A stretch of DNA of 64,000 nt from Escherichia phage EP335. The first letter of the stretch is position 1, and each line of letters starts with the position of its first letter. This document shows, in pieces, positions 18,886 to 41,582 of the stretch. The stretch lies in sequence record MG748548; one strand, given 5' to 3'. The notes below the pieces were generated by a model. That model ran no database searches. It saw only the letters and a list, made by a program, of their open reading frames with translations, and had not been told where the DNA came from. Position numbers and translations under genes: made by a program.

Positions 18886-19066
18886 AACCTACATCCATAT
18901 CATCCTCCTGCCAGACTCGTTTGTTAACACGGTGACTAACCTTGTCAGCTTTAGGGATACGACCAGTACGTTGATCAAACAGTTGGTGTTTAATCTTCTG
19001 ATCTTTACGAGTTTCACGGTTAGGTGAAGTTTCATCATAAGTACGGTAGTTGAATTTATTACCCAT
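18872..19066 (-). CDS. Small basic protein
   Basis: AAGGA RBS before internal ATG at 19066; Lys/Arg-rich 64 aa. Confidence 0.4.
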   Translation of the reverse strand: MGNKFNYRTYDETSPNRETRKDQKIKHQLFDQRTGRIPKADKVSHRVNKRVWQEDDMDVGYGEG

Positions 19067-19898
19067 TATCAATATCCTTATTCCAAATTTTATCAAGCCA
19101 TGACCACTCGAAGAGGTCTTCTGGTGTTTGACCTACGAATAGGAGACGAGCATTCTCAAGCATCTTCTCTTCCCATTCTGTATCAAACTTCTTATAATAT
19201 TCCATTCGCACTATATGATAAAGAGTCCACTTATCACTTACACCTTGTAAAAGGTTGATAGCGGCTTTCTTTCCAACCCCTTGACGACGGAGTTGTAACT
19301 TACCTCCCCACATAACTTCCTCACGTTCGCCACAACCGGGAATGTTATCTGTTCCATCACCAATGAGCATTTGATAAAAGAAGTTTTGCCAAGCAACCTC
19401 ATCTGATACATAGTGAGGAGGAACCTCTTTCTGCCTTTCTCCACATGCCCACCGATAATGCCAACCGGGAGTTATCAGTAAATCTTTGTCTCGTGTACAG
19501 ATGATGGTGTTCTTGTCAGTTCGCTGCCTTTCTGCTAATGCGTCATCAGCCTCTCTTCCGTAAACATCTATATACTCATAATTGTTTTTAATGTAATCAC
19601 CAACGTTCTGCCAGTGGAAAGGTCTTTCTCCCGGAGGTCGGTTGGCTTTGTATCCTTGCTGCTTTGCTACATCAAAACGGAAGTTACCGCCTTCACTGAA
19701 ATAGAAGACTGTCTTTCGACAGCCAGCGCGAGCAATGATTGTATCAAGTTTGTTTTGAAGTCGTTCAATTAGAAATCCATAATCTACTGGTGTACGTCCT
19801 GTATCTAGGAAAGGATGCTCCTGAGTCAGAGCACCCACTTCGTATCGGAGAACATCAGCATCCACTAAAGCTACTTCAGGATACTTAACGTCTTCCAT
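19059..19898 (-). CDS. 5'-3' exonuclease / flap endonuclease (FEN family)
   Basis: Motifs GYKANR, GREADDALA, CTRDKDLL and GDGTDNIPG match the metal-binding motifs of T5 D15 / Pol I 5' nuclease family; RBS GGGGAG. Confidence 0.85.
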   Translation of the reverse strand: MEDVKYPEVALVDADVLRYEVGALTQEHPFLDTGRTPVDYGFLIERLQNKLDTIIARAGCRKTVFYFSEGGNFRFDVAKQQGYKANRPPGERPFHWQNVGDYIKNNYEYIDVYGREADDALAERQRTDKNTIICTRDKDLLITPGWHYRWACGERQKEVPPHYVSDEVAWQNFFYQMLIGDGTDNIPGCGEREEVMWGGKLQLRRQGVGKKAAINLLQGVSDKWTLYHIVRMEYYKKFDTEWEEKMLENARLLFVGQTPEDLFEWSWLDKIWNKDIDNG

Positions 19899-26146: not shown

Positions 26147-26518
26147 TTATTTCTCCAACACTGAGATACTGTACCAATTGTGTAAGGTTTTTCTAACCCA
26201 AGCAATGCGTTTAGGGTTTTTGTGATGAGAGCCTGTGTAACGTTCTCTGTGGTATGTGTCACAACCGAAAGGGTATACCGGGTCCTCAAACCCTTCGTGT
26301 TCAAACATATACGTCAGGTCATTAAAGTCTATATGTTTTGTGAAGAAGTAATAGCTTTTATAACAACGGTAGTTGAAACACAAACCGTGCTCAGGACTGA
26401 ACCATTTTGGGTATTCGTCTGTCTGAGAGATGTTATAATACTGGAGGAGGAAATCCTCCATCCCCCTTTCTTTGGCAATACATCTTAGTGTTCGGTACAT
26501 AATGTTACTCTGCTTCAT
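26147..26518 (-). CDS. Hypothetical protein
   Basis: 123-aa ORF immediately downstream of the polymerase gene. Confidence 0.45.
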   Translation of the reverse strand: MKQSNIMYRTLRCIAKERGMEDFLLQYYNISQTDEYPKWFSPEHGLCFNYRCYKSYYFFTKHIDFNDLTYMFEHEGFEDPVYPFGCDTYHRERYTGSHHKNPKRIAWVRKTLHNWYSISVLEK

Positions 26519-26527
26519 TGTGAATTC

Positions 26528-28375
26528 TCAGTGTGTGTGATTCCAGTTTAATCCAATCTGACAATCAGATGCCAGAGGGCATTCCATCTTGAGATACTCA
26601 CCAGCTTTCTTAACACAAAGCTCTGTAAGTTCTTTTAGTTTTTGTGCATCATTACGGTGAACAGAGAACTGCCCTTCATCGTGCATGTCAATAACCTTCG
26701 CACAACGAACACTATCACGCTCAATCCACTTGTTAAGGAAAAGCATGGCATACTTCATAACAATCGCACCAGCACTCTGTAAGAGTGTATTCAGTGCTTT
26801 ATGAACCATAACCTTACCTGTTGCGTCACGTCTCATTGTAATACGACGACCATCAACACCCAAGATATAACCTTGAGCTGCTTTCTCTGTCATACGCTCA
26901 ATAAGAATTGCAATACAAGGATTCTCTGCCAAGAAACGTGTTCTCATTACTGAACCTTCTTCAGAGCCTCCACCAACAATAGAACCAAGCTTAGCATCAC
27001 CTGCTCCGTAGTTGAACGCATAGATAAACGTCTTAGCGTTGTCACGAGTAGGAAGACCAGCAAGTCTCTGGTTGTGGGAGTGGATATCACCTTCTAATAG
27101 AATGTCACGATACATAACAGCAGAAGCTAAACCACGTTCAGCTAATGCTTTCTTACCAGCGTTACCTTCTGCAATTGCTTCAGCAAGCATGTCTCTACAC
27201 TCTTTAATGAGGTAGTGAGCAAGCATACGAAGTTCTAATCCAGAACCATCATAACCTAGGAAGAGTTCTCTACCAGCTGGTACATAATACTTATACAGCC
27301 CTACTGGTTTGTCTTTCTTTCCGGGTTTTCCACGTTCGTAGATAACGTTTGTATTTTTTCGTAAGTAACACCCATCAGGGATATTGTTGGTAATGATGAA
27401 AGGATAGTTATGACTATCATCTGTGGAGTAGTTAGATTGAAATAAACTCCTACACTCGTGACCAAACAGACCGCGAGAAGGAATATTAACAACAATGCGA
27501 TGTTTAAAACGAAATGTCGGAGTAGCGCAGCTATTAGCTTCCGCTGAGAGTTTACCATCTGGACGTTCCTTATCAATCAGTCCATTAATCAAGCCTAGTC
27601 TGTGAGCCGCTACAACACGTCTCTTAAGCAGACTTCCCACTTTACCTAGATCACCCTCAAGACCTTCTTCAAGAGTCTCTTCGAGGTTTGTAGGAGCTGT
27701 GGGCCACTTGTTCGAAGTAGCTAATGCTCTCTTAATTTCATCAAAGGTTACAGGTTTCTTCCTGTTAGGGTTTAAACCTAAACCAAAGACATAAGCCTTC
27801 ATGTAGTTGACAGTTTTGTGACGAAAGTGCTTATCCAAGAACTTCTTGATATCAGCATCAACCATCTGAGCTGTCTGTCGCTCTTTCTCATTGCCACGCA
27901 TCCAAGAGTTGTACCATTCTTGATACGTTCCACACTTACGCATGGCTCGCTTAATCTCAAATGTGTTCCAAGGCTTCTTAGATGTATTAAATTCTGGAGG
28001 AAGAAAACCTTCATCCATCAGTGCTTCTTTAACTCGTGCATCCTTTGATGGGTCAAAGTCAACATACTCAACACAAGTAAAAGCTCCACCAATATCTTCT
28101 CTCTTTAACCCCACTCTGTCGCAATATAATTGAGGCCACTTCTGAAGAGCACCAGTCTTCTTAAAGGGTTTCATGTAAGTAGAACCATCAACCCTCATCT
28201 TAGGTAACAGAGGAATCAGCTCTCTGTCGATGTTAACGATAATCTCTCTGAGAAGGTGAACATACCACCGTGCATTCCTCCGATTAAAGTTGACACCACT
28301 CTTCGCTTGCTTTGAAATTATATCAGCGACAGTCATCTCCGTTAAGAACGGAAGTACATCAGGGTTCTCCATCAC
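26528..28375 (-). CDS. DNA polymerase, family A (T7 gp5-like), polymerase domain only
   Basis: Motif A DGSGLELRMLAHY, motif B RDNAKTFIYAFNYGAG, motif C VIDMHDE; C-terminal half aligns by eye with the T7 gp5 C-terminus; no 3'-5' exonuclease motifs in this ORF. Confidence 0.9.
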   Translation of the reverse strand: MMENPDVLPFLTEMTVADIISKQAKSGVNFNRRNARWYVHLLREIIVNIDRELIPLLPKMRVDGSTYMKPFKKTGALQKWPQLYCDRVGLKREDIGGAFTCVEYVDFDPSKDARVKEALMDEGFLPPEFNTSKKPWNTFEIKRAMRKCGTYQEWYNSWMRGNEKERQTAQMVDADIKKFLDKHFRHKTVNYMKAYVFGLGLNPNRKKPVTFDEIKRALATSNKWPTAPTNLEETLEEGLEGDLGKVGSLLKRRVVAAHRLGLINGLIDKERPDGKLSAEANSCATPTFRFKHRIVVNIPSRGLFGHECRSLFQSNYSTDDSHNYPFIITNNIPDGCYLRKNTNVIYERGKPGKKDKPVGLYKYYVPAGRELFLGYDGSGLELRMLAHYLIKECRDMLAEAIAEGNAGKKALAERGLASAVMYRDILLEGDIHSHNQRLAGLPTRDNAKTFIYAFNYGAGDAKLGSIVGGGSEEGSVMRTRFLAENPCIAILIERMTEKAAQGYILGVDGRRITMRRDATGKVMVHKALNTLLQSAGAIVMKYAMLFLNKWIERDSVRCAKVIDMHDEGQFSVHRNDAQKLKELTELCVKKAGEYLKMECPLASDCQIGLNWNHTH

Positions 28376-28387
28376 CCTCTCCTTTTA

Positions 28388-28765
28388 TTATCGGTATAGT
28401 AAATCTGTAAACGCTTGGTTGTCTGCTATTACGTCCAAAGCCTCATCCGTGCTAGGAACTTCAGTTTCTTCCACTTGGTACGCAACCTCACGTACACGGA
28501 AAGCTCTTGCAGGAACCCTAAAGCCAGCATGTCTCTCCATAACATCTTTCTGAACCTGTGCAAGCTTCATACCCCACACTTCTTCATAAAGCTCTGGATG
28601 TTTATTACTAATAACTACATACTGACGATGTACGGACTTCGACTCTCTGACCTTAGCTAATAACTCATTAAACAAGTCTAACTCTTCTTCAGAGAGCGCA
28701 TCTACAACGTCTTCCCACTTCTCTACACAGAAGCGGTGGGCATGTCTGATAGGAAGTGACATCAT
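28388..28765 (-). CDS. Hypothetical protein
   Basis: 125-aa ORF immediately upstream of the polymerase-domain gene. Confidence 0.45.
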   Translation of the reverse strand: MMSLPIRHAHRFCVEKWEDVVDALSEEELDLFNELLAKVRESKSVHRQYVVISNKHPELYEEVWGMKLAQVQKDVMERHAGFRVPARAFRVREVAYQVEETEVPSTDEALDVIADNQAFTDLLYR

Positions 28766-29020
28766 TTACCCCTTAGGAAAAGGAAGAAGATTCTCTACTG
28801 CAACACGATAAACCTTTTCTACGTTTTTGTTTTTATAGGAGATGAACTTGCCATCAGCACCACGAAGGATTACATTAGTGCGAGCAGTCTTCGGGTTCTG
28901 GGAAATCTGACCAGCAATGATAGATGCATTAAGTGCGTTCTCAGCGTAGTTAGTAAACTTCCACTTAACAAGTTTATTGGCAATTGAATCGATAATGGTT
29001 ACAGTTTTTACGATAGACAT
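28766..29020 (-). CDS. Hypothetical protein
   Basis: 84-aa ORF. Confidence 0.45.
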   Translation of the reverse strand: MSIVKTVTIIDSIANKLVKWKFTNYAENALNASIIAGQISQNPKTARTNVILRGADGKFISYKNKNVEKVYRVAVENLLPFPKG

Positions 29021-29049
29021 AATTTCTTACCTAAGAAGTTTAATTTGGT

Positions 29050-29085
29050 TTATATAAAAGAAAAGGCCACCCAAACGGGTAGCCT
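29050..29085 (-). terminator. Rho-independent terminator (AGGCUACCC-GUUU-GGGUGGCCU then U-run)
   Basis: 9-bp stem with one G-U pair followed by UUUCUUUUAU on the - strand, just downstream of the stop at 29090. Confidence 0.6.
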
Positions 29086-29089
29086 CTGA

Positions 29090-29404
29090 TTAACTAGAGC
29101 TTAAAGCTCCTTTGCGACCGCCAGCTGATTTTCCAGCGCGATCTCCACTTTTGCCGCCAGCTGAACGATTTCCGCTGACTGTCTCAACACGTAAATTGCT
29201 TGACGCATTAGAGCCTCCTGATTTAATGGCTCGTTTGTGTCCGACATCTTTACCTTTGAGTGCAGATTTTCCAACGCGTTTTTCAACGATGCGACGTGCA
29301 CGGTGGCGCTGAGCATCTCCGCTCTTACTTCCAATTCCCGTTTCACCTCTTGCGATGGCTGTACGTCTTTCTTGTGCATAATCTCTTTTAGCCTTATCAG
29401 TCAT
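29090..29404 (-). CDS. Highly basic Gly/Ser/Arg/Lys-rich protein
   Basis: Strong RBS AAGGAG 7 nt before ATG 29404 and an upstream TAATGTATA motif; an alternative-frame ORF (29101..29379) is embedded. Confidence 0.45.
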   Translation of the reverse strand: MTDKAKRDYAQERRTAIARGETGIGSKSGDAQRHRARRIVEKRVGKSALKGKDVGHKRAIKSGGSNASSNLRVETVSGNRSAGGKSGDRAGKSAGGRKGALSSS

Positions 29405-29440
29405 TTACAACTCCTTAATATATCAGTGTACACTAAGGAG

Positions 29441-29449
29441 TATACATTA
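29441..29449 (-). promoter_or_regulatory. TAATGTATA promoter-like element upstream of the basic-protein gene
   Basis: Reverse complement of 29441-29449 is TAATGTATA, about 40 nt upstream of ATG 29404. Confidence 0.4.
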
Positions 29450-29462
29450 TGAGAGGGTAGCT

Positions 29463-30203
29463 TTAGTTGCCATCCTTCTCCATAGCTTTAACGATTGCTT
29501 TACAGAAACCAGAACGAACAATATCATCCGAGTCACCATCAACAATATCAGCGAACTCATACAGATCGTGCTCGTCAATGAACTCGGTAGCCCAAGTAAG
29601 ACCACTCTCTCGACCTTTCATATCGTGCTGGTTAGTGTCACCCATGCAGAACAGCTGGGATGTTTCACCCAAGCGAGTCATAATAGAGAATGCTTCATCT
29701 TTGGTTGTATTCTGGAACTCATCCACAATAACAATGGCATCATTGAAAGAGCGACCACGGAGATATTCCAGAGGTACGAACTCAATATTACCGTTACCAA
29801 GCTGGCATTCATAGAAACCTTTACCATACCGCTGAGTGATTACATCAACAATAGGCATTAGGTACGGTTCGAACTTATCACGAAGCCCACCCGGAAGTAG
29901 TCCAAGAGAGTTACCCATGCCAACAGAAGGTCGGCTAATGATAATCTTTTGAATCTTACCGCTCTTCAGTGCATCAATGACAGTAGAGGTGATGACGAAC
30001 GTCTTACCACAGCCCGCAGGAGCGTCTGTGAACACCACTTGTTTAGTCTTGATAGCATTGAGCAGCTCAGATTGAAACTGATTCTGAGGGACCACTGGCT
30101 TCGCTAAAACAACCTCTTCATATTCACGCTTACCCTTCTTGGTGACTAAGGCTTCACGACGTAAATCTTTACGAGACTCTCTACGGGACTGTCTACGGCT
30201 CAT
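29463..30203 (-). CDS. phoH: PhoH-like ATPase
   Basis: Walker A DAPAGCGKTF, Walker B IVIVDEFQN and overall PhoH-like layout. Confidence 0.8.
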   Translation of the reverse strand: MSRRQSRRESRKDLRREALVTKKGKREYEEVVLAKPVVPQNQFQSELLNAIKTKQVVFTDAPAGCGKTFVITSTVIDALKSGKIQKIIISRPSVGMGNSLGLLPGGLRDKFEPYLMPIVDVITQRYGKGFYECQLGNGNIEFVPLEYLRGRSFNDAIVIVDEFQNTTKDEAFSIMTRLGETSQLFCMGDTNQHDMKGRESGLTWATEFIDEHDLYEFADIVDGDSDDIVRSGFCKAIVKAMEKDGN

Positions 30204-30385
30204 TTGCGCTCTCCTAGCTCTTCGTAATTAAATACAGAGGTTCGACAATCTTTACATGTTGTTGTATAGACCCGAACATTAATGAACTTCTTGTTCTTCC
30301 CTTTGGTGGGTGAGCCTTTAGCAAGCTCACTAATAACCTTAGAACTCAGGTTTAGGTTTGTGCCCTCGCATTTAGAGCACTTCAC
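30200..30385 (-). CDS. Small zinc-ribbon protein
   Basis: Two CxxC pairs (CSKC...CKDC); GTG start overlapping the upstream stop (GTGA). Confidence 0.45.
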   Translation of the reverse strand: MKCSKCEGTNLNLSSKVISELAKGSPTKGKNKKFINVRVYTTTCKDCRTSVFNYEELGERK

Positions 30386-30548
30386 TCAGGCTCACCAACA
30401 GTAACTTCCCATACAACTTGAGAGATGATATTGTTGATCTGTTTGATTTGCTCGTGAGTCAGTTGCATGCCTTTCATTTTCCGAGAGGCATTACTTCGTG
30501 CTCTTCGCTGACGGTAGAAGTTATTCTTCTTAACAGAGTGTAAGCTAC

Positions 30549-30794
30549 TCATTTCACAAGCTCCACTTCTTCAATGCTGTACCCTTCATAATCCCACTCA
30601 TCTCCCCAATAACTCTCCTTACCTTCGAGAAGTGATTCAATAACTCGCTCACGGTGTTTATCTGGAATAGGAAGACTTTCTAAATCCTTGCGTTCAGGGG
30701 GTGATAGAAAAACTTTGACAGCATAGGAGTAATCAGAACTCCCTTCCATCTCTCCTGCAAGTTTTGTTAAGACGAAACATTTAGATGCAGTCAT
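30549..30794 (-). CDS. Hypothetical acidic protein
   Basis: 81-aa ORF. Confidence 0.4.
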   Translation of the reverse strand: MTASKCFVLTKLAGEMEGSSDYSYAVKVFLSPPERKDLESLPIPDKHRERVIESLLEGKESYWGDEWDYEGYSIEEVELVK

Positions 30795-30976
30795 TTCACA
30801 ACCTTAAACTTAAATGTTGTTGGGTGGTAGTAGTGTAACCTGTTTATTGTATGCTTAGTCTCATGATACAGGATACAAGAGTGGCACATTGAATGGTGCA
30901 AACAGGTTACTGGATTACGTTTGAAATTGGCAATAAGCTTCCGCTTGTTACAGAAGCTACATGTTTTGTGTAAGTC
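30791..30976 (-). CDS. Cys/His-rich small protein (zinc-finger-like)
   Basis: Internal ATG immediately after the ThyX-like stop; CSFC...CLHHSMCHSC. Confidence 0.4.
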   Translation of the reverse strand, partial: DLHKTCSFCNKRKLIANFKRNPVTCLHHSMCHSCILYHETKHTINRLHYYHPTTFKFKVVK

Positions 30977-30978
30977 CA

Positions 30979-31635
30979 TTAACTCTCCAGAGTTTTCCTT
31001 AGAGCTGACCAAGAAATTGGGTAGAGTTTAGCCATCTCTTCATCTAATGACTGAGCAAACAGTCGAACTTCATACTGAGCATGGGATGATAGTCGTTGAC
31101 GACACAATTCAAACCAGCCATACAAACTACCAGTCCATACCCACTCAGTAATCATCCCCTGAGGAAGAACAAAGCGAGCTTGCTCTGGTGCAACAAATTC
31201 AATTAATTTGTCATAGGCTGCCAGTGAAGCCTCATACGCATTATTGATTAGCATTAATGCTTCGGCTCGTTCTCCGTTGACAAGCTGTGTCCCTGAACCT
31301 GCATGGAGGTCCGAAGGTCTCGCAAAAATCTCTTTAGGGATGAAGACTTCAACTGCTCCATCTTTATACCGCCGGGACATTTCGTTCCACGAGAATCCAA
31401 CCTGATGTTTTTGTAGTTGACGAGCTATTGCAATTGGAGCTTTACATCGAAAAGATACTTGAGGGTGTCTGAACGGAGTACAGTGTTTCTCTCTGGCAAG
31501 AAAGTTGATTAATCGAGTATCACGATCATTCAAATCACCCTCTCGCACAACACCGAAAGAAACTCTTGCAGCATTAACAACTGTTTTATCACTACCCATA
31601 GCTTCAATCAATGTTGCCTTCAATTGTTCATTCAT
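30979..31635 (-). CDS. thyX: ThyX-like protein (flavin-dependent thymidylate synthase family; RHR motif replaced by KHQ)
   Basis: FRHPQVSFRC and QLQKHQVGFSWNEMSRRY align with ThyX FEHVSF and QLVRHRxxSxxxxSxRY blocks. Confidence 0.65.
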   Translation of the reverse strand: MNEQLKATLIEAMGSDKTVVNAARVSFGVVREGDLNDRDTRLINFLAREKHCTPFRHPQVSFRCKAPIAIARQLQKHQVGFSWNEMSRRYKDGAVEVFIPKEIFARPSDLHAGSGTQLVNGERAEALMLINNAYEASLAAYDKLIEFVAPEQARFVLPQGMITEWVWTGSLYGWFELCRQRLSSHAQYEVRLFAQSLDEEMAKLYPISWSALRKTLES

Positions 31636-32110
31636 ACTTCAACTTCTCCTTGTTATAAGCAATCTCTGCTTCCTCTGGAGTGTGGAAAGTTCCCAAATGT
31701 TTAGTCTTTCCGCCAACTCCGATGATAGCTCTGAATTTTGTACCACTCGCCGTCTCTCTGATATAGACACCCATTGGGAGCTTTCCAGCTTTTCCGGCTC
31801 TGTTATATTGTTTCCTGTTATGACAGTTTGTAGATGGGTCAACATCTCTTAGGTTTTTAAGAGAGTCATCCAGTTTAATCTGGTTGATATGATCAATCTC
31901 AAACTCAGGCATCTTTCCATAAGAGAAAAACCAAGCTAAACGACAAGCTCTGTAAGATTTTCCTTCGTAATAAATATACCTGTAACCTAGTGTAGAGATA
32001 CACCCAGCAATATTCCCAGCCACCCGTCTACCTTTGGTATTCTTCCACCGAAAGATTCCAGTTTCAGGGTCATAAGACAGGTCTTCTTTTATCTTGTCAG
32101 TTAATATCAA
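31628..32110 (-). CDS. HNH homing endonuclease with AP2-type DNA-binding domain
   Basis: HNH core EIDHINQIKLDDSLKNLR plus AP2-like GVYIRETASGTKFRAIIGVGGKTKHLGTFHTPEEAEIAYN. Confidence 0.75.
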   Translation of the reverse strand: MILTDKIKEDLSYDPETGIFRWKNTKGRRVAGNIAGCISTLGYRYIYYEGKSYRACRLAWFFSYGKMPEFEIDHINQIKLDDSLKNLRDVDPSTNCHNRKQYNRAGKAGKLPMGVYIRETASGTKFRAIIGVGGKTKHLGTFHTPEEAEIAYNKEKLKYE

Positions 32111-32372
32111 AAGCTGTTACCAAGAAAGATTTCAGGTTTGCTTCAGTCTGCATACCAGATAAGCTATAATGTGCACCGCTGTTACGGTTAGGTACGATGA
32201 AAGCAGGAATACTTCGTACACCGTATTCGATAGCTCGATCACGACCATTGCCTTCGAGGATGTTAACCTCTTCAACTTCTAGGTTAAGCTCTTCAGCTAA
32301 TTTGTTGAGGGTAGGGGCCATTGCTTTGCAAGGAGCACACTGATTACTATAAAACTTAATAACTTTATTCAT
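32097..32372 (-). CDS. Thioredoxin
   Basis: Active-site CAPC in the expected position of an ~90-aa thioredoxin fold. Confidence 0.7.
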   Translation of the reverse strand: MNKVIKFYSNQCAPCKAMAPTLNKLAEELNLEVEEVNILEGNGRDRAIEYGVRSIPAFIVPNRNSGAHYSLSGMQTEANLKSFLVTAFDIN

Positions 32373-32552
32373 TCACTCTTCCCATTTACAAACAGCTCAA
32401 GATGTCGCTTGGTAGTGGGGACTACGATATAGTCCTTGTAGCCATGAGACTTAGCAAGCTCTTCTGCTATCTTTTTGGTAGCACCTAATGCTACTACACA
32501 TCGGCACACGATGATTGTGTGCGCTTTGTATTCATCTTTGTTCATAAAAACC

Positions 32553-32738
32553 TTAAGCAGTGATCAGGTGGAGGATAAACGGGATGACTACAGAGATGAT
32601 AACCCAAGCAACAGATGCGATTTGAATTTCAGCTTTCTTGTCAGGAGTTTCTTCAATAAGTTTCTTGCTACCATAATAAACACCTCCGCCAATGAGAAGT
32701 GCCCAAATACTCCAAATGATTGCTGATAACATATTCAA
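32553..32738 (-). CDS. Small membrane protein with two TM segments (holin-like topology)
   Basis: Two hydrophobic helices separated by a charged loop. Confidence 0.4.
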   Translation of the reverse strand: MNMLSAIIWSIWALLIGGGVYYGSKKLIEETPDKKAEIQIASVAWVIISVVIPFILHLITA

Positions 32739-32790
32739 TTCCTTATAAATAAGTTCGCCCTACCTCGGATTAGGAGACAGGGCGGAGGTT

Positions 32791-33378
32791 TTAGTATGAG
32801 ACGTCACTAGAGTGTGACATGTTACTTTTAACGAAGTAGCAATACTTGCCTAACCCTTCGTTGATTTCTTGGAGCATGCTCTGGTCAACTGGATACTCGC
32901 TCAAACATCCATCGAACTCATCCATTTTGTCAATCATGCACATTAAAGACATGCACATATCAGAGAGCATACCATCCATATCTAGGTCTGCATTTCCTTC
33001 AGAGAACCAAGAGTGTGATAGGTAGTTAGAAGCAGTTGCATCCACCTTAATACAGTGGAAACGCATACGTTCAGCTATCCGATCACCTGTCTCACGAGCA
33101 TAATCTTCAAGCTCATCAAACATTCCATGAACACCCTGAAATCCTGCACCAGATACGTTCCAGTGATAATTCTTAGCTTTGATATGCAAGAGTTCTAAAT
33201 TAGCTTGAATACCGCATAGAATGTGTTCTAGGCTGTTTCCACTAATCATCCCTTGCATACGCTCTAAACGGGAGATAGAAGAGTCTGTTTCACGTAATAC
33301 ATCACGGAAAGAAGTCTCTTTTGTTAGAGTTGGTAGGTCGAAAACATTGTGATTAGGCATTAGGATTCTCTCCATCAA
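32791..33378 (-). CDS. Dps/ferritin-like protein
   Basis: NYHWNVSGAGFQGVHGMFDELEDYARETGDRIAERM matches the Dps ferroxidase-centre region (HWN..G..F...H..F.E...........AER). Confidence 0.6.
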   Translation of the reverse strand: MMERILMPNHNVFDLPTLTKETSFRDVLRETDSSISRLERMQGMISGNSLEHILCGIQANLELLHIKAKNYHWNVSGAGFQGVHGMFDELEDYARETGDRIAERMRFHCIKVDATASNYLSHSWFSEGNADLDMDGMLSDMCMSLMCMIDKMDEFDGCLSEYPVDQSMLQEINEGLGKYCYFVKSNMSHSSDVSY

Positions 33379-33682
33379 GTTCTACTGAGTTCGCAACATT
33401 GCGTGTAATGTTATCCATTACCTGTTGGGTGATAACGATGCAGTTCTGTGGGTCAACCGACTTAGAACGTCCCATCTCAGGGTCATACACTTTAACGCGC
33501 TTTGCTGTAGAACCAGTTACCTGTAACACCTTGAGAAGATAACCCTGATTCCCGATAGACCATGCAACAACATCACGATTCTTGATGAATCGACCAAGCA
33601 TATCACGATGATAGAACTGCTGCATAACCTTTGATTTATTAATCTCTTCGGCTGGCGGAGCCACTTTACTCAAATCTAACAT
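33353..33682 (-). CDS. Hypothetical protein
   Basis: 109-aa ORF; AAATGTATATA motif 40 nt upstream. Confidence 0.45.
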   Translation of the reverse strand: MLDLSKVAPPAEEINKSKVMQQFYHRDMLGRFIKNRDVVAWSIGNQGYLLKVLQVTGSTAKRVKVYDPEMGRSKSVDPQNCIVITQQVMDNITRNVANSVELDGENPNA

Positions 33683-33754
33683 TTCACTCTCTCCTGTTCA
33701 ATACAATATTCTTATACTGTATATACATTTGAGAGTGATCATATCTACTACCAA

Positions 33755-33961
33755 CTAGTAGAAAACTGCTTTGGATATAAAAGAGCCAGTATTAGGGTCC
33801 TCATGCCATCGATGCATAGTGACTTTTGAGATAACCTTGCAAGCTTTCAAGTTTTTCTTGGTGAGACGAGCTTCTTCTCTGGTGTTGAATAACTTGATGG
33901 TATCTTTACCCACACGCTCTTCTACTCTCCACACTATTCGTATAGCCCACATCTTTTTCAT
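33755..33961 (-). CDS. Small protein, member 1 of a tandem paralog triplet
   Basis: MKKMWAIRIVWRVEE..., similar in length and pattern to the next two genes. Confidence 0.45.
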   Translation of the reverse strand: MKKMWAIRIVWRVEERVGKDTIKLFNTREEARLTKKNLKACKVISKVTMHRWHEDPNTGSFISKAVFY

Positions 33962-34176
33962 TAGTAATGTACCTTTCCGCTGATATAAATACGGCCTGAG
34001 GTATACTCATAGCCCTTGAGGATTTTGACAGAGGAAACACTATTCATCCCACTGAGAGATTTCTTAAGATTACGTGAACCCTCTCGTGTTTTCTGATAGG
34101 TCATGGTTGTATTACCATTATCCCACTCTATCTTAACTATCCAAATTCTTTTCATAAGACCTGCTCTCTTTACCAT
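33961..34176 (-). CDS. Small protein, member 2 of the tandem paralog triplet
   Basis: MVKRAGLMKRIWIVKIEWDNG...; stop/start coupled to neighbours. Confidence 0.45.
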   Translation of the reverse strand: MVKRAGLMKRIWIVKIEWDNGNTTMTYQKTREGSRNLKKSLSGMNSVSSVKILKGYEYTSGRIYISGKVHY

Positions 34177-34373
34177 TAGTAGTACACCTTGCTATTGGCG
34201 AAAAAAGCACCTTCGCTATTCACAATAGCTTTTCCTAATGTAACCTTGTTAAGTCTAAAAGTAGACTTGTATTGATTTTTGACCCTACGTGCGTGATCTC
34301 GAGTCTTAACAAAATCTACAGCTACCAAGTCTCCAGTCATGTTATCATGTACACGAACAATCCACTTTTTCAT
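34176..34373 (-). CDS. Small protein, member 3 of the tandem paralog triplet
   Basis: MKKWIVRVHDNMTGDLVAVDF...; ends in YY like member 1. Confidence 0.45.
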   Translation of the reverse strand: MKKWIVRVHDNMTGDLVAVDFVKTRDHARRVKNQYKSTFRLNKVTLGKAIVNSEGAFFANSKVYY

Positions 34374-34907
34374 TTACACACCCTTAGAAGCAACAACACC
34401 TTCGCTACCATTGTAGCGACCTTTAACTGCATAGGAATGCTCACCAGCATGTGAATGCTCAAACATCACCATCTGACCGACACGCATACCAGCACGAACC
34501 CGTAAGCTGTGGTGCTTGGTTACGTTATGGAACTCAAATGTCAGCTTGCTATTGTTAAACCCAGCGTCTGCCCAACCAGCGTGCAAGTGGTTCAAGCCAC
34601 AACGAGCCATTGAAGATCGTAGAACAAACAAGCTGGAGATGTTATCTGGGAGGTTGAACTCTTCCATTGAGTGAGCCAAGAAGAATTGTCCCGGAGTGAT
34701 GATAATGCCATCTTCAGGGATTTTTACTTCTTTCCACTTGAGGTTTTCTTTCGCATCAATGTCAACAATCCCATCAGCCTGTTCTTCAATAAGGATAGTA
34801 TCACCAACACGGATATCCACACTAGCAGCGTTAACATACTTATGCTCCGCATCCAGAAAACCGTTGTCGATAACGTCGTGTAATTCCATGCTTCCTAATA
34901 AACTCAT
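34374..34907 (-). CDS. dcd: dCTP deaminase (dUTPase-fold)
   Basis: SVDIRVGD, PGQFFLAHSMEEFNLPDN, RSSMARCGL and AGWADAGF align with E. coli Dcd TVDVRLG, PGELALAVTLESVTLPAD, RSSLARLGL, PGWSG. Confidence 0.8.
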   Translation of the reverse strand: MSLLGSMELHDVIDNGFLDAEHKYVNAASVDIRVGDTILIEEQADGIVDIDAKENLKWKEVKIPEDGIIITPGQFFLAHSMEEFNLPDNISSLFVLRSSMARCGLNHLHAGWADAGFNNSKLTFEFHNVTKHHSLRVRAGMRVGQMVMFEHSHAGEHSYAVKGRYNGSEGVVASKGV

Positions 34908-34921
34908 TCTTATTCCTTATG

Positions 34922-36202
34922 TTAATCTGCGATACTGTCGCTTTCGTCCATCCAGACTGGACTGTTAACCTGTCCTAGACGACGAGCTGATGTTTCGTTA
35001 ATAGAGTTAACCCCTGCTGTGCGAGGGTTTGTGTACCACGGTCGAGCTATGGTGCCCTCTCGAATCACTTGGTTCGTTTCGACATGCCATCTGTTTGATA
35101 CCGTGTTGGCTCCGAAGTTACCACCCGCCCCACCACTAACAGGTACAGCTTGAGCTGGTTGGTTTACTCGGTTAGTTCCTGCCCCAAAGGCTGCTGCAAA
35201 TTCAGACACACGTGCATCAAATGAAGAACGAACACGCTGAGTAGGTGATATATCATTTCGTGTATCTACTGCACGAGGCATAGCCCAAGTATCATCTGTT
35301 GAGATATCAGGGGTAGGCTCTTGCTCTAGAGGTTGAAGATTAGCTGTCCATTGACTATTCAGTATACGATAGAAATCTGCACCATAACCACTTCGGATAA
35401 CATCCTCTCTGACACCAAAGAAGCGACTGATATCCCCACCGATTCGGGCTAGTTTGTCATTGTATGCAGGTATGATTATTCCACCCTCTGTCACTAAATC
35501 AGAGACACGACTTGTTGTAAGTGGTGAAGTGATCCAACAATAATAATCAGTAATGTGACCATCGTATCCGAAGAATGCAATCTCTGCATCAGGCCATTTC
35601 TTGTGGACATATGCCACTTCACGGTTAGAACAAACAGGGATTGCACCTGTTTCAGTCATTGCATAGAAGCCGTCAGAAGAGAACCAAAGTGAATCTAGTG
35701 CTAAGAATCCACGACACACGCTCGGGAAAGTAGCAGCCAGCGCCCCAAGTGAGGTAGGTTCATTGAACATTAACTGAATCTTTGCACCCTGATAATTAAT
35801 CTCTAGGATATCTACAAAATTCAAAGAAGACCCAGGGGCATATTGATTATTACTTCGTCCAATATCCTGCTCAATGAGAAGAGATCTTGTTTCAACACCA
35901 TGAGCCTCTGCCCACTCTTTGAAATCTTCAAGGAACAAGCGAGCCTTAGCTCGCCACATCGACCGATCAATTACAGACTGTCTCGGCAATCCACCCTCTG
36001 TAGTGATGAGAAAGATATCAATGTCGTGAGGTTCACGCGTCTGAAAGATTGCATCCCTAACAGCACCACCTGCAATGATAGGGTACACACCATCAGGGAT
36101 TAAACGGTTTGCAATCAACTCGTTAATTAACGTAAGACCAGACACAAGCTGCGGACTATCATCAATCCGTCGACGAATTAGTGCATTAGGGATATTATAC
36201 AT
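34922..36202 (-). CDS. Pol-beta superfamily nucleotidyltransferase (CCA-adding-enzyme-like head domain) with long Gly/Asn-rich C-terminal region
   Basis: IIAGGAVRDAIFQTREPHDIDIFLI matches the GG-x-R-D ... D-x-D nucleotidyltransferase motif of class II CCA-adding / poly(A) polymerase enzymes. Confidence 0.55.
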   Translation of the reverse strand: MYNIPNALIRRRIDDSPQLVSGLTLINELIANRLIPDGVYPIIAGGAVRDAIFQTREPHDIDIFLITTEGGLPRQSVIDRSMWRAKARLFLEDFKEWAEAHGVETRSLLIEQDIGRSNNQYAPGSSLNFVDILEINYQGAKIQLMFNEPTSLGALAATFPSVCRGFLALDSLWFSSDGFYAMTETGAIPVCSNREVAYVHKKWPDAEIAFFGYDGHITDYYCWITSPLTTSRVSDLVTEGGIIIPAYNDKLARIGGDISRFFGVREDVIRSGYGADFYRILNSQWTANLQPLEQEPTPDISTDDTWAMPRAVDTRNDISPTQRVRSSFDARVSEFAAAFGAGTNRVNQPAQAVPVSGGAGGNFGANTVSNRWHVETNQVIREGTIARPWYTNPRTAGVNSINETSARRLGQVNSPVWMDESDSIAD

Positions 36203-36751
36203 TTACATTTTCCAATATAAAGATGGGGGGTCATTTGGGTCAAAGTTTGCAATATGACAAAGATATTTATAAACCTTAACCGTTAAGTTTACGTCCTGTT
36301 CACAATAAGTAAACATGTCCTCTGTAAAGGCATCCCATGCTTCTTCCTGTTCACCGTAATCGCCCTTAAGCTCTTCTAAGAACTCACCCCATTGCTTTAA
36401 GCCATGACCTCTTGGGCCATGTCTAGGGTCGCCTTTCGGATACTCAGGACTGTCACCAATACGGTCAGGTTTAAGATACCGACTCAGACATAAAGTGTCT
36501 AGGACGTTGAATTTGTATTTGATTAATTTCGGATATACTTTCTTCAGAGCTGGAAGGTCGAAGTCAATAATATTATGACCTACAACAATATCAGCCTCTG
36601 TAAGTTTCTTGATACCCTCTTCAATCTGGTGAGGACGAAATCCCCACCGTTCACCAGTTGCTATATCGAAGATAAAGATACACCATACGTTTGTGATATT
36701 GTCGTACAGTGCATCACTCTCAATATCAAATGCGTAGACTTTCTTTACCAC
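36203..36751 (-). CDS. DNA polymerase family A, 3'-5' exonuclease domain (T7 gp5 N-terminal-like), separate gene
   Basis: Exo I AFDIESD, Exo [13 protein letters not shown], Exo [12 protein letters not shown]; [11 protein letters not shown] and [19 protein letters not shown] resemble T7 gp5 N-terminal blocks; stop after ~182 aa. Confidence 0.85.
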
Positions 36752-38535
36752 GGGCTTTTCTCTCCATCTTGAGCAAGAAGTGATGCTGCATCCTCTCCAT
36801 TTGTCAGCGAGAATGGATTTTCTTCATCAATTTCATGATCTTCACGCTCAAGCAACCGTCCCGTCTCTCCTACATACTTCGTATAGCACACCCCTGTTTG
36901 TCCATAGTTACGCTCTTTGAGGAGTCGTATAATGGATAGGTTCTTAGCCAGACCATCTGCTTGTTTGTCACGTTCAAAACCGATGATACATTGACACCAA
37001 CGCATAAGAGAACGAGAACCAGTAAACTGTACCTCTCGAACCTGACCACCTTCTTCATGAGGTGCACCACCTGCCGGAGCATTAAGATGAGATAGCACGA
37101 ATGCTGTGAAGTTTAATTCTTGACACATACCAGCAAGCTCTGAAGCAATCTTACTGATTTCAGTGTTAATCTCTGAAGGTGTTAAATGGGATACCAGAGC
37201 GGTAATGTTATCAAGGATGATAAACTTACACTGGTTTTCAACAACCCAGAAACGGATACACTGTTTAATGTCGGCCCATTCATTCTGACCAAAGTTATCA
37301 TAGAGGAAGAATTTATCTGCATATCGAAGAGCTTCGTTACGCAATGTATCTTCATCATACTCAACATCAGGTCTGTGGAAAGGAATAGATGCTGACTTAC
37401 CTGCAATATTCTTAACGGACATTCCGACCTTCTCTTCCAAGAAGAATCCACCACCATTAAAACCATGCTCAAGACAAAGCCAAGCAACCAGTTCATGTGC
37501 AATCAATGTTTTACCAGAGCCTACACCTCCACCAATTGCTACCATCTCTCCCCAACGAATACCGTAGGTCATCTCATTAAGAGTCTTCCACGGATATGGG
37601 ATACCCCACTCTGCTTTCTTCAGAGCATCATCTAAGCAATCAAAAACAGTTACAGCACCAGCTGGGGATTCCCGCTTCGCTGAATATTTAAGAATGTTAA
37701 ACAACTCCTGACCACGACCAGAGAGGAGCATATCATTCGCATCTTTAAGCTCTTTCTCAACACCGTTGTACTGGAAAGAACCTTTAGGAATACGAGCAAA
37801 CTTCACATGGGGGAACAGAGCACGCCCTTTGGTAAGAGCAATCTCACCAGCATCATCGTTGTCCATACAGAGAACAACCTCTTCAAAACCATTCAAGAAC
37901 TCACGGTTGCGAGATAAAACGGAAGAGATTGACCCTGCACCGAAGGGTAAAGAGACGCACGCTGGTTTAATATTTGTTGCATTTGTAAAAGCTGTAAGAA
38001 CATGGAAACCAGACATGCAAGACAAAGGGTCTTCAAAGATGAAGAGCTTCTTATTGTACACATCTCCACGTTTAGCCTGTGCCATACCAAACAAATCAGC
38101 TTCTTTCACACTACCGATGTAATAAAACTTTTTACTATCAAGTAGTTTAACCTCATAACCAACAATGTTTCCATCACGTTCACGAGGGAAGAAGTAACTG
38201 TCTGGTGTCTGACCATCAGTTTGACTGAGACCGATACGACATTCAAAACGCTCTGATACAGCTTTAGGGATTAATCGACGAGTGAGTTCTCCTTGAGGTA
38301 ACTCCAAGCAATCATCCAAGACTTCTCGAAGTTCTTCAGGGGACAGCTCTTTCTTTTCGTTTGGTGTAGGTGTCGTGCCTTTCTCAAAGACTTCGTAATT
38401 ACCACACCGGTTACAACTACCCCACTCTTCACCGGATTCCTCATTACGGAAGAGAATCATGTGATTGTGGGTTTTATCACGACCATGAGAGATGCACTCT
38501 TTACAGCCTGTATCTCCCAAAATGATCTTTGACAT
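36745..38535 (-). CDS. Primase-helicase (T7 gp4-like)
   Basis: N-terminal zinc-binding Cys cluster, [15 protein letters not shown], DnaB-family Walker [10 protein letters not shown]. Confidence 0.9.
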
Positions 38536-38572: not shown

Positions 38573-38782
38573 TTACTTATAAAAACTTCGAATCATGTCC
38601 CAGATTTCTTCCTGCTGGACCCTAAAGAAAGCTAAACGTGTCGATGTACGTTCAATAAATTCTTCACTATGCTTTTCTCTATCTAGCATACTGACAAGCT
38701 TTTCATATTTATTGATCTTCCATCGCATTTTTAAATAGTCTGATTCCAGTGTCCTTAACCTCTGACACTCAATCAAACCCAT
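38573..38782 (-). CDS. Hypothetical protein
   Basis: 69-aa ORF. Confidence 0.4.
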   Translation of the reverse strand: MGLIECQRLRTLESDYLKMRWKINKYEKLVSMLDREKHSEEFIERTSTRLAFFRVQQEEIWDMIRSFYK

Positions 38783-39201
38783 TAGTTATCCTCTGACAGA
38801 TAAAGAGACCAGTCACCAGATTCAACCAGCTCATCCTGCTCTTCATCGATGTGATAAATCCAAGCAGTGATAGTTTCACCACTATCCATTACAACTTCGA
38901 TAGGAGTACGCTTATAGAAAGTGTGTGGGTTGTCATTACCGCGATGCCCTTCCAGCATATCATAAGCACCCTCAACACCATCCATATCCGTCTTAAATAC
39001 TTCAACACGAACAGGTTTACCGTTGCTGTTGTGTTCCAGAGAAACACTTGGGAAGTATGAACCACCGTAGCGGTACAAGTTGTAGTTTTCTTTAGTGAAG
39101 CCTTCACCAATTGATTCAGCACCTGCACGAGCATTCACTCGGAAGTTGGCCTGACCAGTGCGAAGAGAACCGTAAGTTGCTACATAAATTACTTCTGACA
39201 T
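38782..39201 (-). CDS. Gamma-glutamyl cyclotransferase-like (AIG2/GGCT family) protein
   Basis: N-terminal VATYGSLRTGQ (YGSL motif) and downstream AYDMLEG with conserved Glu. Confidence 0.6.
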   Translation of the reverse strand: MSEVIYVATYGSLRTGQANFRVNARAGAESIGEGFTKENYNLYRYGGSYFPSVSLEHNSNGKPVRVEVFKTDMDGVEGAYDMLEGHRGNDNPHTFYKRTPIEVVMDSGETITAWIYHIDEEQDELVESGDWSLYLSEDN

Positions 39202-39202
39202 T

Positions 39203-39412
39203 TTAAATACCTTTCCAATCGTTCATGATTTTTTCAATATAAGCACACTGTTGATCAGTGGCACCTGTTACAAATATTTCACACCCTAACTGTTCACAGA
39301 AAGGATTGAGTATTAAGATTTGAGATTTACCATATGAGTGATGCTCTCTGTAAATAACACAACCAGCATCCCAAACTGAATCTAATGCCTTACTTAACCT
39401 TTTGTGTTTCAT
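39203..39412 (-). CDS. Hypothetical protein
   Basis: 69-aa ORF. Confidence 0.4.
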   Translation of the reverse strand: MKHKRLSKALDSVWDAGCVIYREHHSYGKSQILILNPFCEQLGCEIFVTGATDQQCAYIEKIMNDWKGI

Positions 39413-39468
39413 ACAGTCTCCAGTTAATCCGAACTAGCCTCCTCTTTCGAAGAAGCTAGAGCAGATTG

Positions 39469-39651
39469 CTATGCTGTGAAGTTTTTGATTACACCGCAAA
39501 TAACATCTGTTTCAAACGTACCCACCAGAACATCGTCTCGGTAGAAATTAATCGCTTTACCATCTCGGTTAAAGTGATCTGCTTCAATGAGCATAGATTG
39601 TACCTGACCATCTGGGGTGGAGGTTCGAAAGATGACGTTATACTGACTCAT
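39469..39651 (-). CDS. Hypothetical protein
   Basis: 60-aa ORF. Confidence 0.35.
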   Translation of the reverse strand: MSQYNVIFRTSTPDGQVQSMLIEADHFNRDGKAINFYRDDVLVGTFETDVICGVIKNFTA

Positions 39652-39890
39652 AAAGAAGTTACTCCCTTATCTTCTTGAGCGATAGAGATGATACGACTCA
39701 CACACTGCATTGAGTACTCATCACCACGCTTTAGGAACGTTACGATAGCAGAGAATTGATTACCAATCATCCGCTCATTTGTAATACCGAACTCTTTGCA
39801 GAGTTCTTTCAGTTTGCTACGAGAACCAATAATCAGAGGTTCTTTTTCTTCAGTCATTCCACGACTAATCAAATCTTCAATAGACAACAT
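39648..39890 (-). CDS. Hypothetical protein
   Basis: 80-aa ORF; start coupled to neighbours. Confidence 0.4.
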   Translation of the reverse strand: MLSIEDLISRGMTEEKEPLIIGSRSKLKELCKEFGITNERMIGNQFSAIVTFLKRGDEYSMQCVSRIISIAQEDKGVTSL

Positions 39891-39913
39891 AATTCCATTC
39901 CTTGGGGGTTTAA

Positions 39914-41131
39914 TTAAAAGTTTACTGCTTCACCATCAACGGTAGTTACTGATGCAAGACGACGAACACGGCCAATCTGTTCACGACTGATTGGAGTATT
40001 CCAACCAGAGCGATAGAAGTTGCGACCACAGAAGAACACAACAACATTAGAAGCAATCCGTCCGTAGTTACGATCAGGGTGATTGATGTTAGCAAGATAA
40101 TAACCACGGGTCAAGTTTGCATTTTCGTTGATATGCCGAGCATTTGGTGCAGTTGTTTCAGCTTGCATCATTTCAGGAACATCTTCTACGATAGGCTCAA
40201 CCGTAGGTTCATCACCAGCTAAAGCAAAGTTCTCATCAGCAGCCTCTTCTGCATCATCTTCCAGCTCCACAGTTTCCTGAATAACTGGCAGAGGGTATGC
40301 TACACGATACTCAGGGTTTTGACCACGGAGAGATTCAACATACTGCAAGAAGTTGTGCTGGTAAGTTTCCAGAGTTGTACCAGTCAGGCCCGGAGCGGTA
40401 TTAACTTCTAACACCCACGCTTCCTCACCTTTACTGATAAGATCAACAGCACCAAAGTTAAGACCGAGTGCTTGTACTGCTTTGTGCGCTTGAATTAGAA
40501 CCTGATCAGGTGGTGAATCATTAAAAGAGTTGGAATAAACCCAACCAGTGTGGTGATTACGAACATCTTCACGATAGTCAGGGTTATCACGATACCCATT
40601 ACGACGAATCTTCTTCTGGACGTAAGTAATAACACCTTCAAAAACATGCACACGCCATTCACGACGTGGACCAGTGATTGCTTTTGTATACAGAGGAGCC
40701 TCAGCAACACCCTCACGAGGAAGACGAACAGTGATGCCTTCACCAGAGTGACCATTAAGTACACCACGTTCGTAAACAATACTGTTTTGGTTCCAGTTAA
40801 GTGCTTCATCTCGGTTAGTGGTATACTCAACAGTCTTGACTTCCGCAAGACGCATGGCATTGAAAGCTGCAACCTTGTTAGCCGCACGATTCAATGCTGC
40901 TACGTTGTTCAGAACCGTTGCACCTTCGAAGAAGGATTCTTGATAACGACGGTTTCCATAGTTGATAATCACGTCACCAGAACGAGCACGGAATCGGCTG
41001 GTTCCATCAGACAGAAGAGCCATTGCGTTGGCATTGATTCGGTTGTCACGGAGATGTTGATTCAAGCTGGATACCAGAGCATTAACAGAATCAGAAGGGC
41101 CATAAGGGAGAACACGGATACGAGTAGTCAT
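39914..41131 (-). CDS. ATP-grasp domain ligase
   Basis: WVLEVNTAPGL matches the ATP-grasp E-x-N-x-x-PG loop; 405 aa. Confidence 0.7.
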   Translation of the reverse strand: MTTRIRVLPYGPSDSVNALVSSLNQHLRDNRINANAMALLSDGTSRFRARSGDVIINYGNRRYQESFFEGATVLNNVAALNRAANKVAAFNAMRLAEVKTVEYTTNRDEALNWNQNSIVYERGVLNGHSGEGITVRLPREGVAEAPLYTKAITGPRREWRVHVFEGVITYVQKKIRRNGYRDNPDYREDVRNHHTGWVYSNSFNDSPPDQVLIQAHKAVQALGLNFGAVDLISKGEEAWVLEVNTAPGLTGTTLETYQHNFLQYVESLRGQNPEYRVAYPLPVIQETVELEDDAEEAADENFALAGDEPTVEPIVEDVPEMMQAETTAPNARHINENANLTRGYYLANINHPDRNYGRIASNVVVFFCGRNFYRSGWNTPISREQIGRVRRLASVTTVDGEAVNF

Positions 41132-41133
41132 TT

Positions 41134-41367
41134 TTAGATACCTTTAAGTTTAAGAATTTCGTTGCGAGTACGTTGGATACGTTCTTCAAGAGTATGATAA
41201 TCAAAGATGCACATCTCTTCTGCTTCATCAGAAGGTGCATCCATTAAACCCATAGCAATCGGATACACCTTTCGCTGTTCCGTTGTCATGTCCTGTAGCC
41301 GGAGTCGTTGATACTCCAGCAGGGTAATTTTCGGCTTGTTAGTTTCCTTGCTTGACATGAGGCTCAA
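41134..41367 (-). CDS. Hypothetical protein
   Basis: 77-aa ORF. Confidence 0.4.
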   Translation of the reverse strand: MSLMSSKETNKPKITLLEYQRLRLQDMTTEQRKVYPIAMGLMDAPSDEAEEMCIFDYHTLEERIQRTRNEILKLKGI

Positions 41368-41572
41368 CCTTGATACCTTTCAGTTTCACATAGTCAGCCA
41401 GCACGTTGTTAATAACTGTTGGGAAAGGAATCTCAACAGGTGCATTAACTAACCCACCAATACCCTCTTGCATCCACTTCTGGATTGCACGAAGGTTATC
41501 ACATCCTGTGCTTGTCATTGGAATACGGCGAGTGGTTACAACGTTATCCAACATCATCTTACGAATTTCCAT
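41339..41572 (-). CDS. Hypothetical protein
   Basis: 77-aa ORF. Confidence 0.4.
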   Translation of the reverse strand: MEIRKMMLDNVVTTRRIPMTSTGCDNLRAIQKWMQEGIGGLVNAPVEIPFPTVINNVLADYVKLKGIKVEPHVKQGN

Positions 41573-41582
41573 AATACACCTC

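Follow-up and report, generated by a model that had tools for sequence, protein, structure and literature searches.

A T7 gp5-like DNA polymerase encoded as separate exonuclease and polymerase genes in Escherichia phage EP335

The window analysed here, a stretch of 64,000 nucleotides (nt) from Escherichia phage EP335 (MG748548), is predicted to encode a T7-like family A DNA polymerase as two separate genes. From ~18 kb to 64 kb of the window, every gene lies on the minus strand. These genes include a T7 gp4-like primase/helicase (36745..38535; Pfam DnaB_C and Toprim_2), a 3′–5′ proofreading exonuclease subunit of 182 amino acids with a GTG start (36203..36751; assigned by Pfam PF01612, alignment with T7 gp5, AlphaFold and annotated homologues) and an exonuclease-less family A DNA polymerase subunit (26528..28375; assigned by Pfam PF00476, alignment with T7 gp5, motifs A, B and C and a structural model). 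The spacer between the latter two (28376..36202, minus strand) was annotated with Pfam and PHROGs; it measures 7,827 nt and contains 20 open reading frames (ORFs) of at least 50 amino acids. A first-pass annotation of the same DNA, made from the letters alone, had placed 14 or more genes over ~7.8 kb between the two halves, of which the distance stands and the gene count rises to 20 ORFs. Searches of phage genomes (tblastn) identify the source of the window as a phiEco32-like (Kuravirus-group) coliphage, i.e. a podophage, with 95–99% protein-level identity to phages KBNP1711 and KarlSchell_Bas89 (hereafter Bas89). Identity of the polymerase is 99% with Bas89 and KBNP1711 and 88% with phiEco32 and ~90 other records, the corresponding values for the exonuclease being 95.6% for Bas89/KBNP1711 and ~87% for phiEco32 and other records. 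Approximately 90 further records have both halves, at 80–90% identity.

The exonuclease ORF matches Pfam DNA_pol_A_exo1 (PF01612; expectation value E=5e-7, 30.1 bits against a curated cut-off of 23.6), aligns with residues 5–193 of T7 gp5 at 29% identity (BLASTP, E=4e-17) and has T7 gp5 chains as its only sequence matches in the Protein Data Bank (PDB; E=1.8e-10). The Exo I, II and III motifs and the likeness to the N-terminus of T7 gp5, both recognized in the first-pass annotation, could be located residue by residue: D9/E11 (Exo I), D65 (Exo II) and Y149/D153 (Exo III) align with T7 D5/E7, D65 and Y170/D174, in the DxE, Nx2-3[FY]D and Yx3D arrangement of PolA-type DEDDy exonucleases. Residues D9, E11, N60, D65, Y149 and D153 are unchanged across 35 homologues (47–87% identity). 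The AlphaFold model (predicted local distance difference test, pLDDT, 92.0) had T7 gp5 as each of its top 27 PDB fold matches (E 4.5e-12 to 2e-9; template modelling (TM) score up to 0.73), followed by another family A polymerase (E=1.6e-5), while the first free DEDD nuclease appeared only at rank 32 (E=3.9e-5). Kinship with stand-alone DnaQ/epsilon-like or free DEDD nucleases, the outcome that the first-pass annotation had named as contradicting its proposal, was rejected on the PDB sequence matches and on the distance between these values. Sequence and predicted fold together identify the ORF as a complete T7 gp5-type 3′–5′ exonuclease domain, equivalent to ~residues 1–200 of T7 gp5 and the counterpart of phiEco32 gp74. 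Its GTG start codon (36751), preceded by GGAGAG, lies in a 7-nt overlap (36745–36751) with the last codons of the primase/helicase gene, an arrangement also found in Bas89 and phiEco32 and one that suggests translational coupling of the exonuclease to the primase/helicase. The C-terminus of the primase/helicase (36748–36800) is an acidic tail with a terminal Trp, which we take to resemble the acidic, aromatic-ended tail of T7 gp4 that binds T7 gp5.

The polymerase ORF matches Pfam DNA_pol_A (PF00476, E=1e-23) and aligns with residues 217–704 of T7 gp5 (BLASTP, E=5e-37). It displays motif A DGSGLELR (D376), motif B RDNAKTFIYAFNYG (R444, K448 and Y452) and motif C HDE (H565-D566-E567), aligned with T7 D475, R518/K522/Y526 and D654, respectively, and representing the DxSxxELR, RxxAKxxxYxxxYG and HDE signatures of T7 gp5-type family A enzymes. 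These three motifs and the C-terminal His are unchanged in 62 homologues. In the AlphaFold model (pLDDT 91.8) a right-hand palm, fingers and thumb fold is predicted that lies nearest to solved PolA structures, the best 27 fold matches being T7 gp5 (E from 2.7e-25, TM ~0.57), then Bst, Klenow and Taq. No PF01612 match was obtained for an exonuclease domain on this ORF, which starts at ~T7 residue 205; the earlier description of it as having motifs A/B/C and a T7 gp5-like C-terminus but no exonuclease is borne out by Pfam, BLASTP and alignment alike. Translation most likely begins at ATG 28372 (614 amino acids) rather than at GTG 28375 one codon upstream (615 amino acids), given that AAGGAG lies 6 nt upstream of the ATG. 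The ORF is assigned on these grounds as a complete exonuclease-less family A polymerase, equivalent to T7 gp5 ~205–704 and the counterpart of phiEco32 gp53, with insertions particular to its lineage in the thumb and ahead of motif A. The polymerase genes of Bas89 and KBNP1711, and also those of SU7 and 1-6af/bf, are interrupted by an insertion of 782 nt that contains an endonuclease ORF (L001 14367–15149 in Bas89), at a point corresponding to 27007–27009 in the window (codons 456/457, motif B FNY|GAG), where the window allele is intron-less. This insertion scored just under the Rfam gathering threshold of 50 for a group I intron (48.1 and 34.7 bits). Polymerase proteins of ~450 amino acids consisting of exon 1 only are frequent in metagenomes (e.g. 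P0042, 100% identical).

Aligning the exonucleases and polymerases of the window, Aeromonas phage APT65 and Pseudomonas phage Ka1 with T7 gp5, a check proposed in the first-pass annotation, mapped the break to T7 residues ~200–204: the exonuclease ORF ends at ~residue 200 and the polymerase ORF begins at ~203–205, i.e. in the segment that links the two domains of T7 gp5. The position is identical in all three phages, and relative to T7 gp5 no sequence is missing and none is duplicated. Only ~10 residues of the exonuclease ORF and ~12 of the polymerase ORF fall outside the T7 alignment at the junction. The C-terminal tail of the exonuclease, F-D-P-x-N-P-P, aligns with the T7 linker Y-F-P-P-E, and its P175 and P176 are invariant in the 35 homologues; E13, Q23 and G27 at the N-terminus of the polymerase are also conserved (62 homologues). 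The intein or homing-endonuclease footprint that the first-pass annotation suggested looking for was not found at the break, nor was that of an intron, the group I intron of the relatives lying ~1.4 kb away, in motif B, and being absent from the window. Both polypeptides comprise complete domains with all catalytic residues and are inherited together, and on the alignments and models the two ORFs are the halves of one T7 gp5-type enzyme, not a DnaQ-type nuclease plus an unrelated polymerase.

The order primase/helicase, exonuclease, variable block and polymerase recurs in phiEco32, Bas89, Ptacy1532, the Aquaneticvirus APT65 and the Bruynoghevirus Ka1, with gaps between exonuclease and polymerase of 2.3 kb in Ka1 (~10 small genes), 8.0 kb in phiEco32, 8.2 kb in Bas89, 9.6 kb in APT65 (21 genes) and ~10 kb in Ptacy1532. 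Synteny, a further check proposed at first pass, showed both the split layout and the position of the break to be common to lineages at 37–50% (exonuclease) and 39–46% (polymerase) identity. The APT65 spacer has dCTP deaminase, a DNA-binding protein and thymidylate synthase as in the window, plus anaerobic ribonucleotide reductase genes, while that of Ka1 has none of the genes that the window and APT65 have in common. The relatives rank alike by either half (APT65, 50% for the exonuclease and 46% for the polymerase; Ka1, 37.5% and 39.5%; then fused Autographiviridae enzymes, ~29–39%), which fits joint vertical descent, and the polymerase of Ka1 can be aligned end to end with that of the window, both having insertions that T7 lacks. 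All 36 exonuclease homologues at ≥47% identity are 105–193 amino acids long, too short for fusion to a polymerase, and none of the best 120 polymerase homologues has an exonuclease domain. The window's own clade is uniformly split.

A full HMMER scan of 1.84 billion representatives returned 2,707 exonuclease matches; the best 150 comprise 88 proteins of ≥550 amino acids matched at the N-terminus, 34 of ≤240 amino acids and 28 of intermediate length, the last probably being fragments. In a nearest-neighbour analysis of 157 exonuclease domains, 15 stand-alone forms had a stand-alone and 12 a fused nearest neighbour. A single origin of all stand-alone exonucleases was rejected on this interspersion with fused forms; outside the window's clade, repeated fission or fragmentary gene calls likely account for it, and fission of T7-like PolA has probably happened more than once.

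Taken as a feature of the genome, the split adds nothing new, being already known from the RefSeq annotation of phiEco32 and from publications on the Kuravirus group and LUZ24-like phages. In phiEco32, phi32_74 is annotated as ‘DNA polymerase exonuclease subunit; contains 3'-5' exonuclease domain’ and phi32_53 as ‘DNA polymerase; lacks 5'-3' and 3'-5' exonuclease domains’, while the Bas89 pair, which encloses the same genes, is labelled ‘DNA polymerase exonuclease subunit’ and ‘DNA polymerase I’. The separation was described as common to all members of the phiEco32-like group (PMC9965538, 2023), and polymerase and proofreading exonuclease as separate genes in all LUZ24-group phages (PMC3517423, 2012). 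The window shares with the phiEco32 type the linker break, the gene order and orthology to gp74 and gp53; it departs from the whole-enzyme T7 gp5 type, in which the exonuclease is N-terminal on the same polypeptide, in having it separate and 7.8 kb upstream. Counterpart genes are present in phiEco32, KBNP1711, KarlSchell_Bas89, SU10, YF01, 7-11, Privateer, Vp_R1 and BUCT695. In the Escherichia coli phages of the phiEco32 group they are 87–96% (exonuclease) and 88–99% (polymerase) identical and the order is as in the window (primase/helicase, exonuclease, nucleotidyltransferase, dCTP deaminase ... thioredoxin, ThyX ... PhoH ... polymerase). The window differs from this group in its set of homing endonucleases and has the shortest spacer measured in an E. 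coli phage (7.8 kb vs 8.0–~10 kb). In LUZ24-like Bruynoghevirus (LUZ24, PaP3, tf and Ka1) the genes are likewise separate (‘DNA polymerase part I / part II’), with the same break and order (primase/helicase, exonuclease, small genes, polymerase) and 39% identity over the full length of the polymerase. These phages differ in the gap of 2.3 kb without nucleotide-metabolism genes or thioredoxin and in a polymerase 70 amino acids shorter, without the two Kuravirus-type insertions.

The nearest solved structure for both halves is T7 gp5 (with E. coli thioredoxin and gp4), which has in common with the window all exonuclease and polymerase catalytic motifs, the motif B tyrosine, the C-terminal histidine and a gp4-like primase/helicase partner. 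T7 gp5 is, however, one polypeptide of 704 amino acids whereas the window encodes two, without a covalent linker; the thumb of the window polymerase lacks part of the thioredoxin-binding segment and has an extra insertion of ~110 amino acids; and the thioredoxin of the window is phage-encoded whereas T7 gp5 uses that of E. coli. The core of E. coli Pol III, in which the alpha polymerase and the epsilon DnaQ proofreader are separate polypeptides acting as one complex, offers a functional analogy only, with a family C polymerase and a DnaQ-type exonuclease in place of the PolA/gp5 type of the window. Other split family A polymerases have been reported from marine cyanophages and OM43 phages. Cyanopodophages such as S-SRP01 and uncultured marine cyanophages (bioRxiv 10.1101/325100) have the exonuclease and polymerase domains of a T7-like PolA on different ORFs, but there the two ORFs adjoin or overlap and the polymerase, at 423 amino acids, is much the shorter; this split is probably an independent event, since the nearest neighbours of its exonuclease domain are fused enzymes.

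We consider it likely that the window encodes a two-gene family A polymerase, the products of which come together, without a covalent bond, as a proofreading replicase like gp5. On this reading a T7 gp5-like gene was split long ago, precisely where the linker joins its two domains, and two genes were left, the exonuclease gene being apparently coupled in translation to the gp4-like primase/helicase gene. The exonuclease and polymerase would then bind each other non-covalently and rebuild the proofreading replicase, a mismatched primer end being handed over by the polymerase site to the exonuclease site inside a single complex at the fork; the primase/helicase would also belong to this complex and the phage thioredoxin may take part. 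Assembly of this kind is suggested by the conservation of the former linker, i.e. the FDPxNPP tail of the exonuclease and the N-terminus of the polymerase, neither of which a free nuclease would need. In phiEco32 the cluster of polymerase and nucleotide-metabolism genes belongs to the middle class (PMC8948821). As an experimental system, a natural and anciently separated exonuclease/polymerase pair could show how far proofreading depends on covalent linkage, and a T7-like polymerase that has no exonuclease of its own, and whose proofreader can be detached, might find use in biotechnology.

Several points weigh against this assembly or narrow it. No direct evidence of a physical complex between exonuclease and polymerase was found, either here or in the literature open to search, and that literature yielded no biochemical study of a phiEco32- or LUZ24-type split PolA. 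Two strong terminator-like hairpins occupy intergenic gaps between the two genes (32784–32756 and 29087–29062, minus strand), and each has an 11-bp stem rich in guanine and cytosine (G+C) with a T-rich run after it; they may be terminators or RNA-stability elements, and with them in between the exonuclease and polymerase may be made in unequal amounts. Across the region as a whole, terminator-like sites (11 vs 8.4 expected) were not above chance, and a scan for sigma-70 promoters gave no excess either (24 sites vs 27.3 expected from shuffled sequence). No thioredoxin is annotated in the split-polymerase stretches of Ka1 and APT65, so that a holoenzyme of three parts does not hold for split enzymes in general. 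Furthermore, similarity of the exonuclease domain by itself does not discriminate between a shared and a separate origin of the Kuravirus-type and LUZ24-type splits.

The exonuclease could instead be a free-standing nuclease that is not stably bound to the polymerase, acting in trans on mismatched or frayed 3′ ends or serving recombination, end processing or host DNA breakdown. The 7.8 kb and the hairpins that separate the two genes would fit such a role, as would the coupling of the exonuclease gene to the primase/helicase gene and not to that of the polymerase, the frequency of stand-alone relatives in metagenomes (34 of the 150 best representatives, at ≤240 amino acids, scattered among fused forms) and the fact that no interaction study of exonuclease and polymerase was found in the literature open to search. 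Nevertheless, the nearest relatives in both sequence and fold are polymerase-attached gp5 exonuclease domains and not free DEDD nucleases, the former linker tail is invariant, and the exonuclease gene lies beside replisome genes in every examined lineage with an exonuclease-less polymerase; we regard a free nuclease as unlikely, though worth weighing. Rather less probable still is that the exonuclease forms an independent replisome module, made in step with the primase/helicase and recruited through the helicase or the phage thioredoxin instead of the old gp5 interface. The replicase would in that case have three or four parts, with proofreading dosed separately from polymerization.

The thioredoxin in question (32097..32372, minus strand; 91 amino acids, CAPC active site; Pfam PF00085, E=2e-13) is possibly an accessory or processivity factor of the polymerase. 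A thioredoxin acting as processivity factor has been put forward as a hypothesis for phage Privateer (PMC7881722). Its candidacy as a general processivity partner is weakened by the Ka1 and APT65 stretches, where none is annotated.

In the first-pass annotation the block between the two genes looked like an inserted module, an idea that fared poorly. Were it a recently inserted mobile element, an ~8 kb block would have cut an intact gp5-like gene in two, and the block does have mobile homing endonuclease genes that vary even between the window and its closest relative. Yet the same break and order are found in Aquaneticvirus (9.6 kb) and Bruynoghevirus (2.3 kb), diverged lineages with largely different intervening genes; dCTP deaminase and ThyX occur also in APT65, which makes some of the block, at least, old; G+C content (0.41–0.44 throughout the spacer and flanks) and strand are those of the flanks; and no fused version exists among homologues above 47% (exonuclease) or 37% (polymerase) identity. 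We accordingly give recent insertion very little credence. The comparisons point to an old fission, the gap having been filled and remodelled gradually, and to a block that is no single insertion but a long-standing stretch of nucleotide-metabolism and homing endonuclease genes in slow turnover. Short-range turnover in the spacer concerns mostly homing endonuclease genes: the spacer is collinear with those of Bas89 and phiEco32 except for their presence or absence, and the window lacks four HNH genes present in Bas89 (L001 1989–2480, 6639–7148, 11802–12296 and 17527–18000). Around homing endonuclease sites, identity between the near-identical phages ranges from 88% to 99.7% by segment, which indicates a mosaic genome.

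Phage polymerase genes often harbour inteins and introns, and in relatives a group I intron occurs in this gene, though not at the break. Nothing was found, however, that speaks for a split intein joining the two halves post-translationally, or for misassembly or pseudogene decay as the cause of the separation, and we give these readings next to no probability: the ~10 and ~12 spare residues at the junction are too few for an N-intein (~100 amino acids) and a C-intein (~35 amino acids, ending in HN and followed by Cys/Ser/Thr), the layout is the same across many independent genomes (the four independently deposited ones compared here rule out the assembly rearrangement that the first-pass annotation had raised against itself), and both ORFs are intact with invariant catalytic residues. 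The polymerase of phage SU10 was moreover detected at 69.2 kDa against a predicted 69.1 kDa (PMC4281155), the mass of the unfused product and hence of a separate polypeptide.

Among the other contents of the spacer, the dCTP deaminase, the Dps/ferritin-like DNA-binding protein, the thioredoxin, the HNH protein, ThyX and the PhoH-like ATPase named at first pass were all confirmed by Pfam, and small ORFs of unknown function make up the remainder together with the genes described below. The HNH gene lies between those for thioredoxin and ThyX (31628–32110, minus strand) and is absent from Bas89 and phiEco32; it had been called an HNH-AP2 endonuclease, of which Pfam supports the HNH part, with no AP2 match at E<0.01. 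The gene directly after the exonuclease (34922–36202, minus strand) encodes a nucleotidyltransferase of 426 amino acids, a call that is upheld by PHROGs (PHROG 12715, E=6e-161) but has no Pfam match at E<0.01. The C-terminal third of this protein is of low complexity, and a related gene occurs at another place in the LUZ24-like Ka1. Three tandem paralogous small genes (33755–34373, minus strand; 68, 71 and 65 amino acids) belong to PHROG 4939, of unknown function (E 4e-20 to 2e-26).

Elsewhere in the window, an ORF of 279 amino acids (19059..19898, minus strand) is a candidate separate 5′–3′ exonuclease/flap endonuclease (Pfam 5_3_exonuc_N, 26.8 bits, under the cut-off of 34.3), the Bas89 counterpart of which carries the annotation ‘exonuclease’. 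It would represent a third Pol I-type activity, encoded separately, and this phage group has been described as having separate 5′–3′ and 3′–5′ exonuclease subunits (PMC9965538). A single tRNA-Arg (anticodon TCT; 53504–53579, minus strand) lies in the early region and was the only match in the window at Rfam gathering thresholds. Upstream of the replication genes, a gamma-glutamyl cyclotransferase, an ATP-grasp/S6-glutaminyl-transferase-like protein and a glutamine amidotransferase form a cluster (38782–43466, minus strand) that also precedes the primase/helicase in APT65 and the LUZ24-like Ka1, further evidence of deep synteny between the three lineages. Directly downstream of the polymerase lies an ORF of 123 amino acids (26147–26518, minus strand; PHROG 2510, unknown function) that Bas89 lacks, with phi32_52, of similar size, at the same place in phiEco32.

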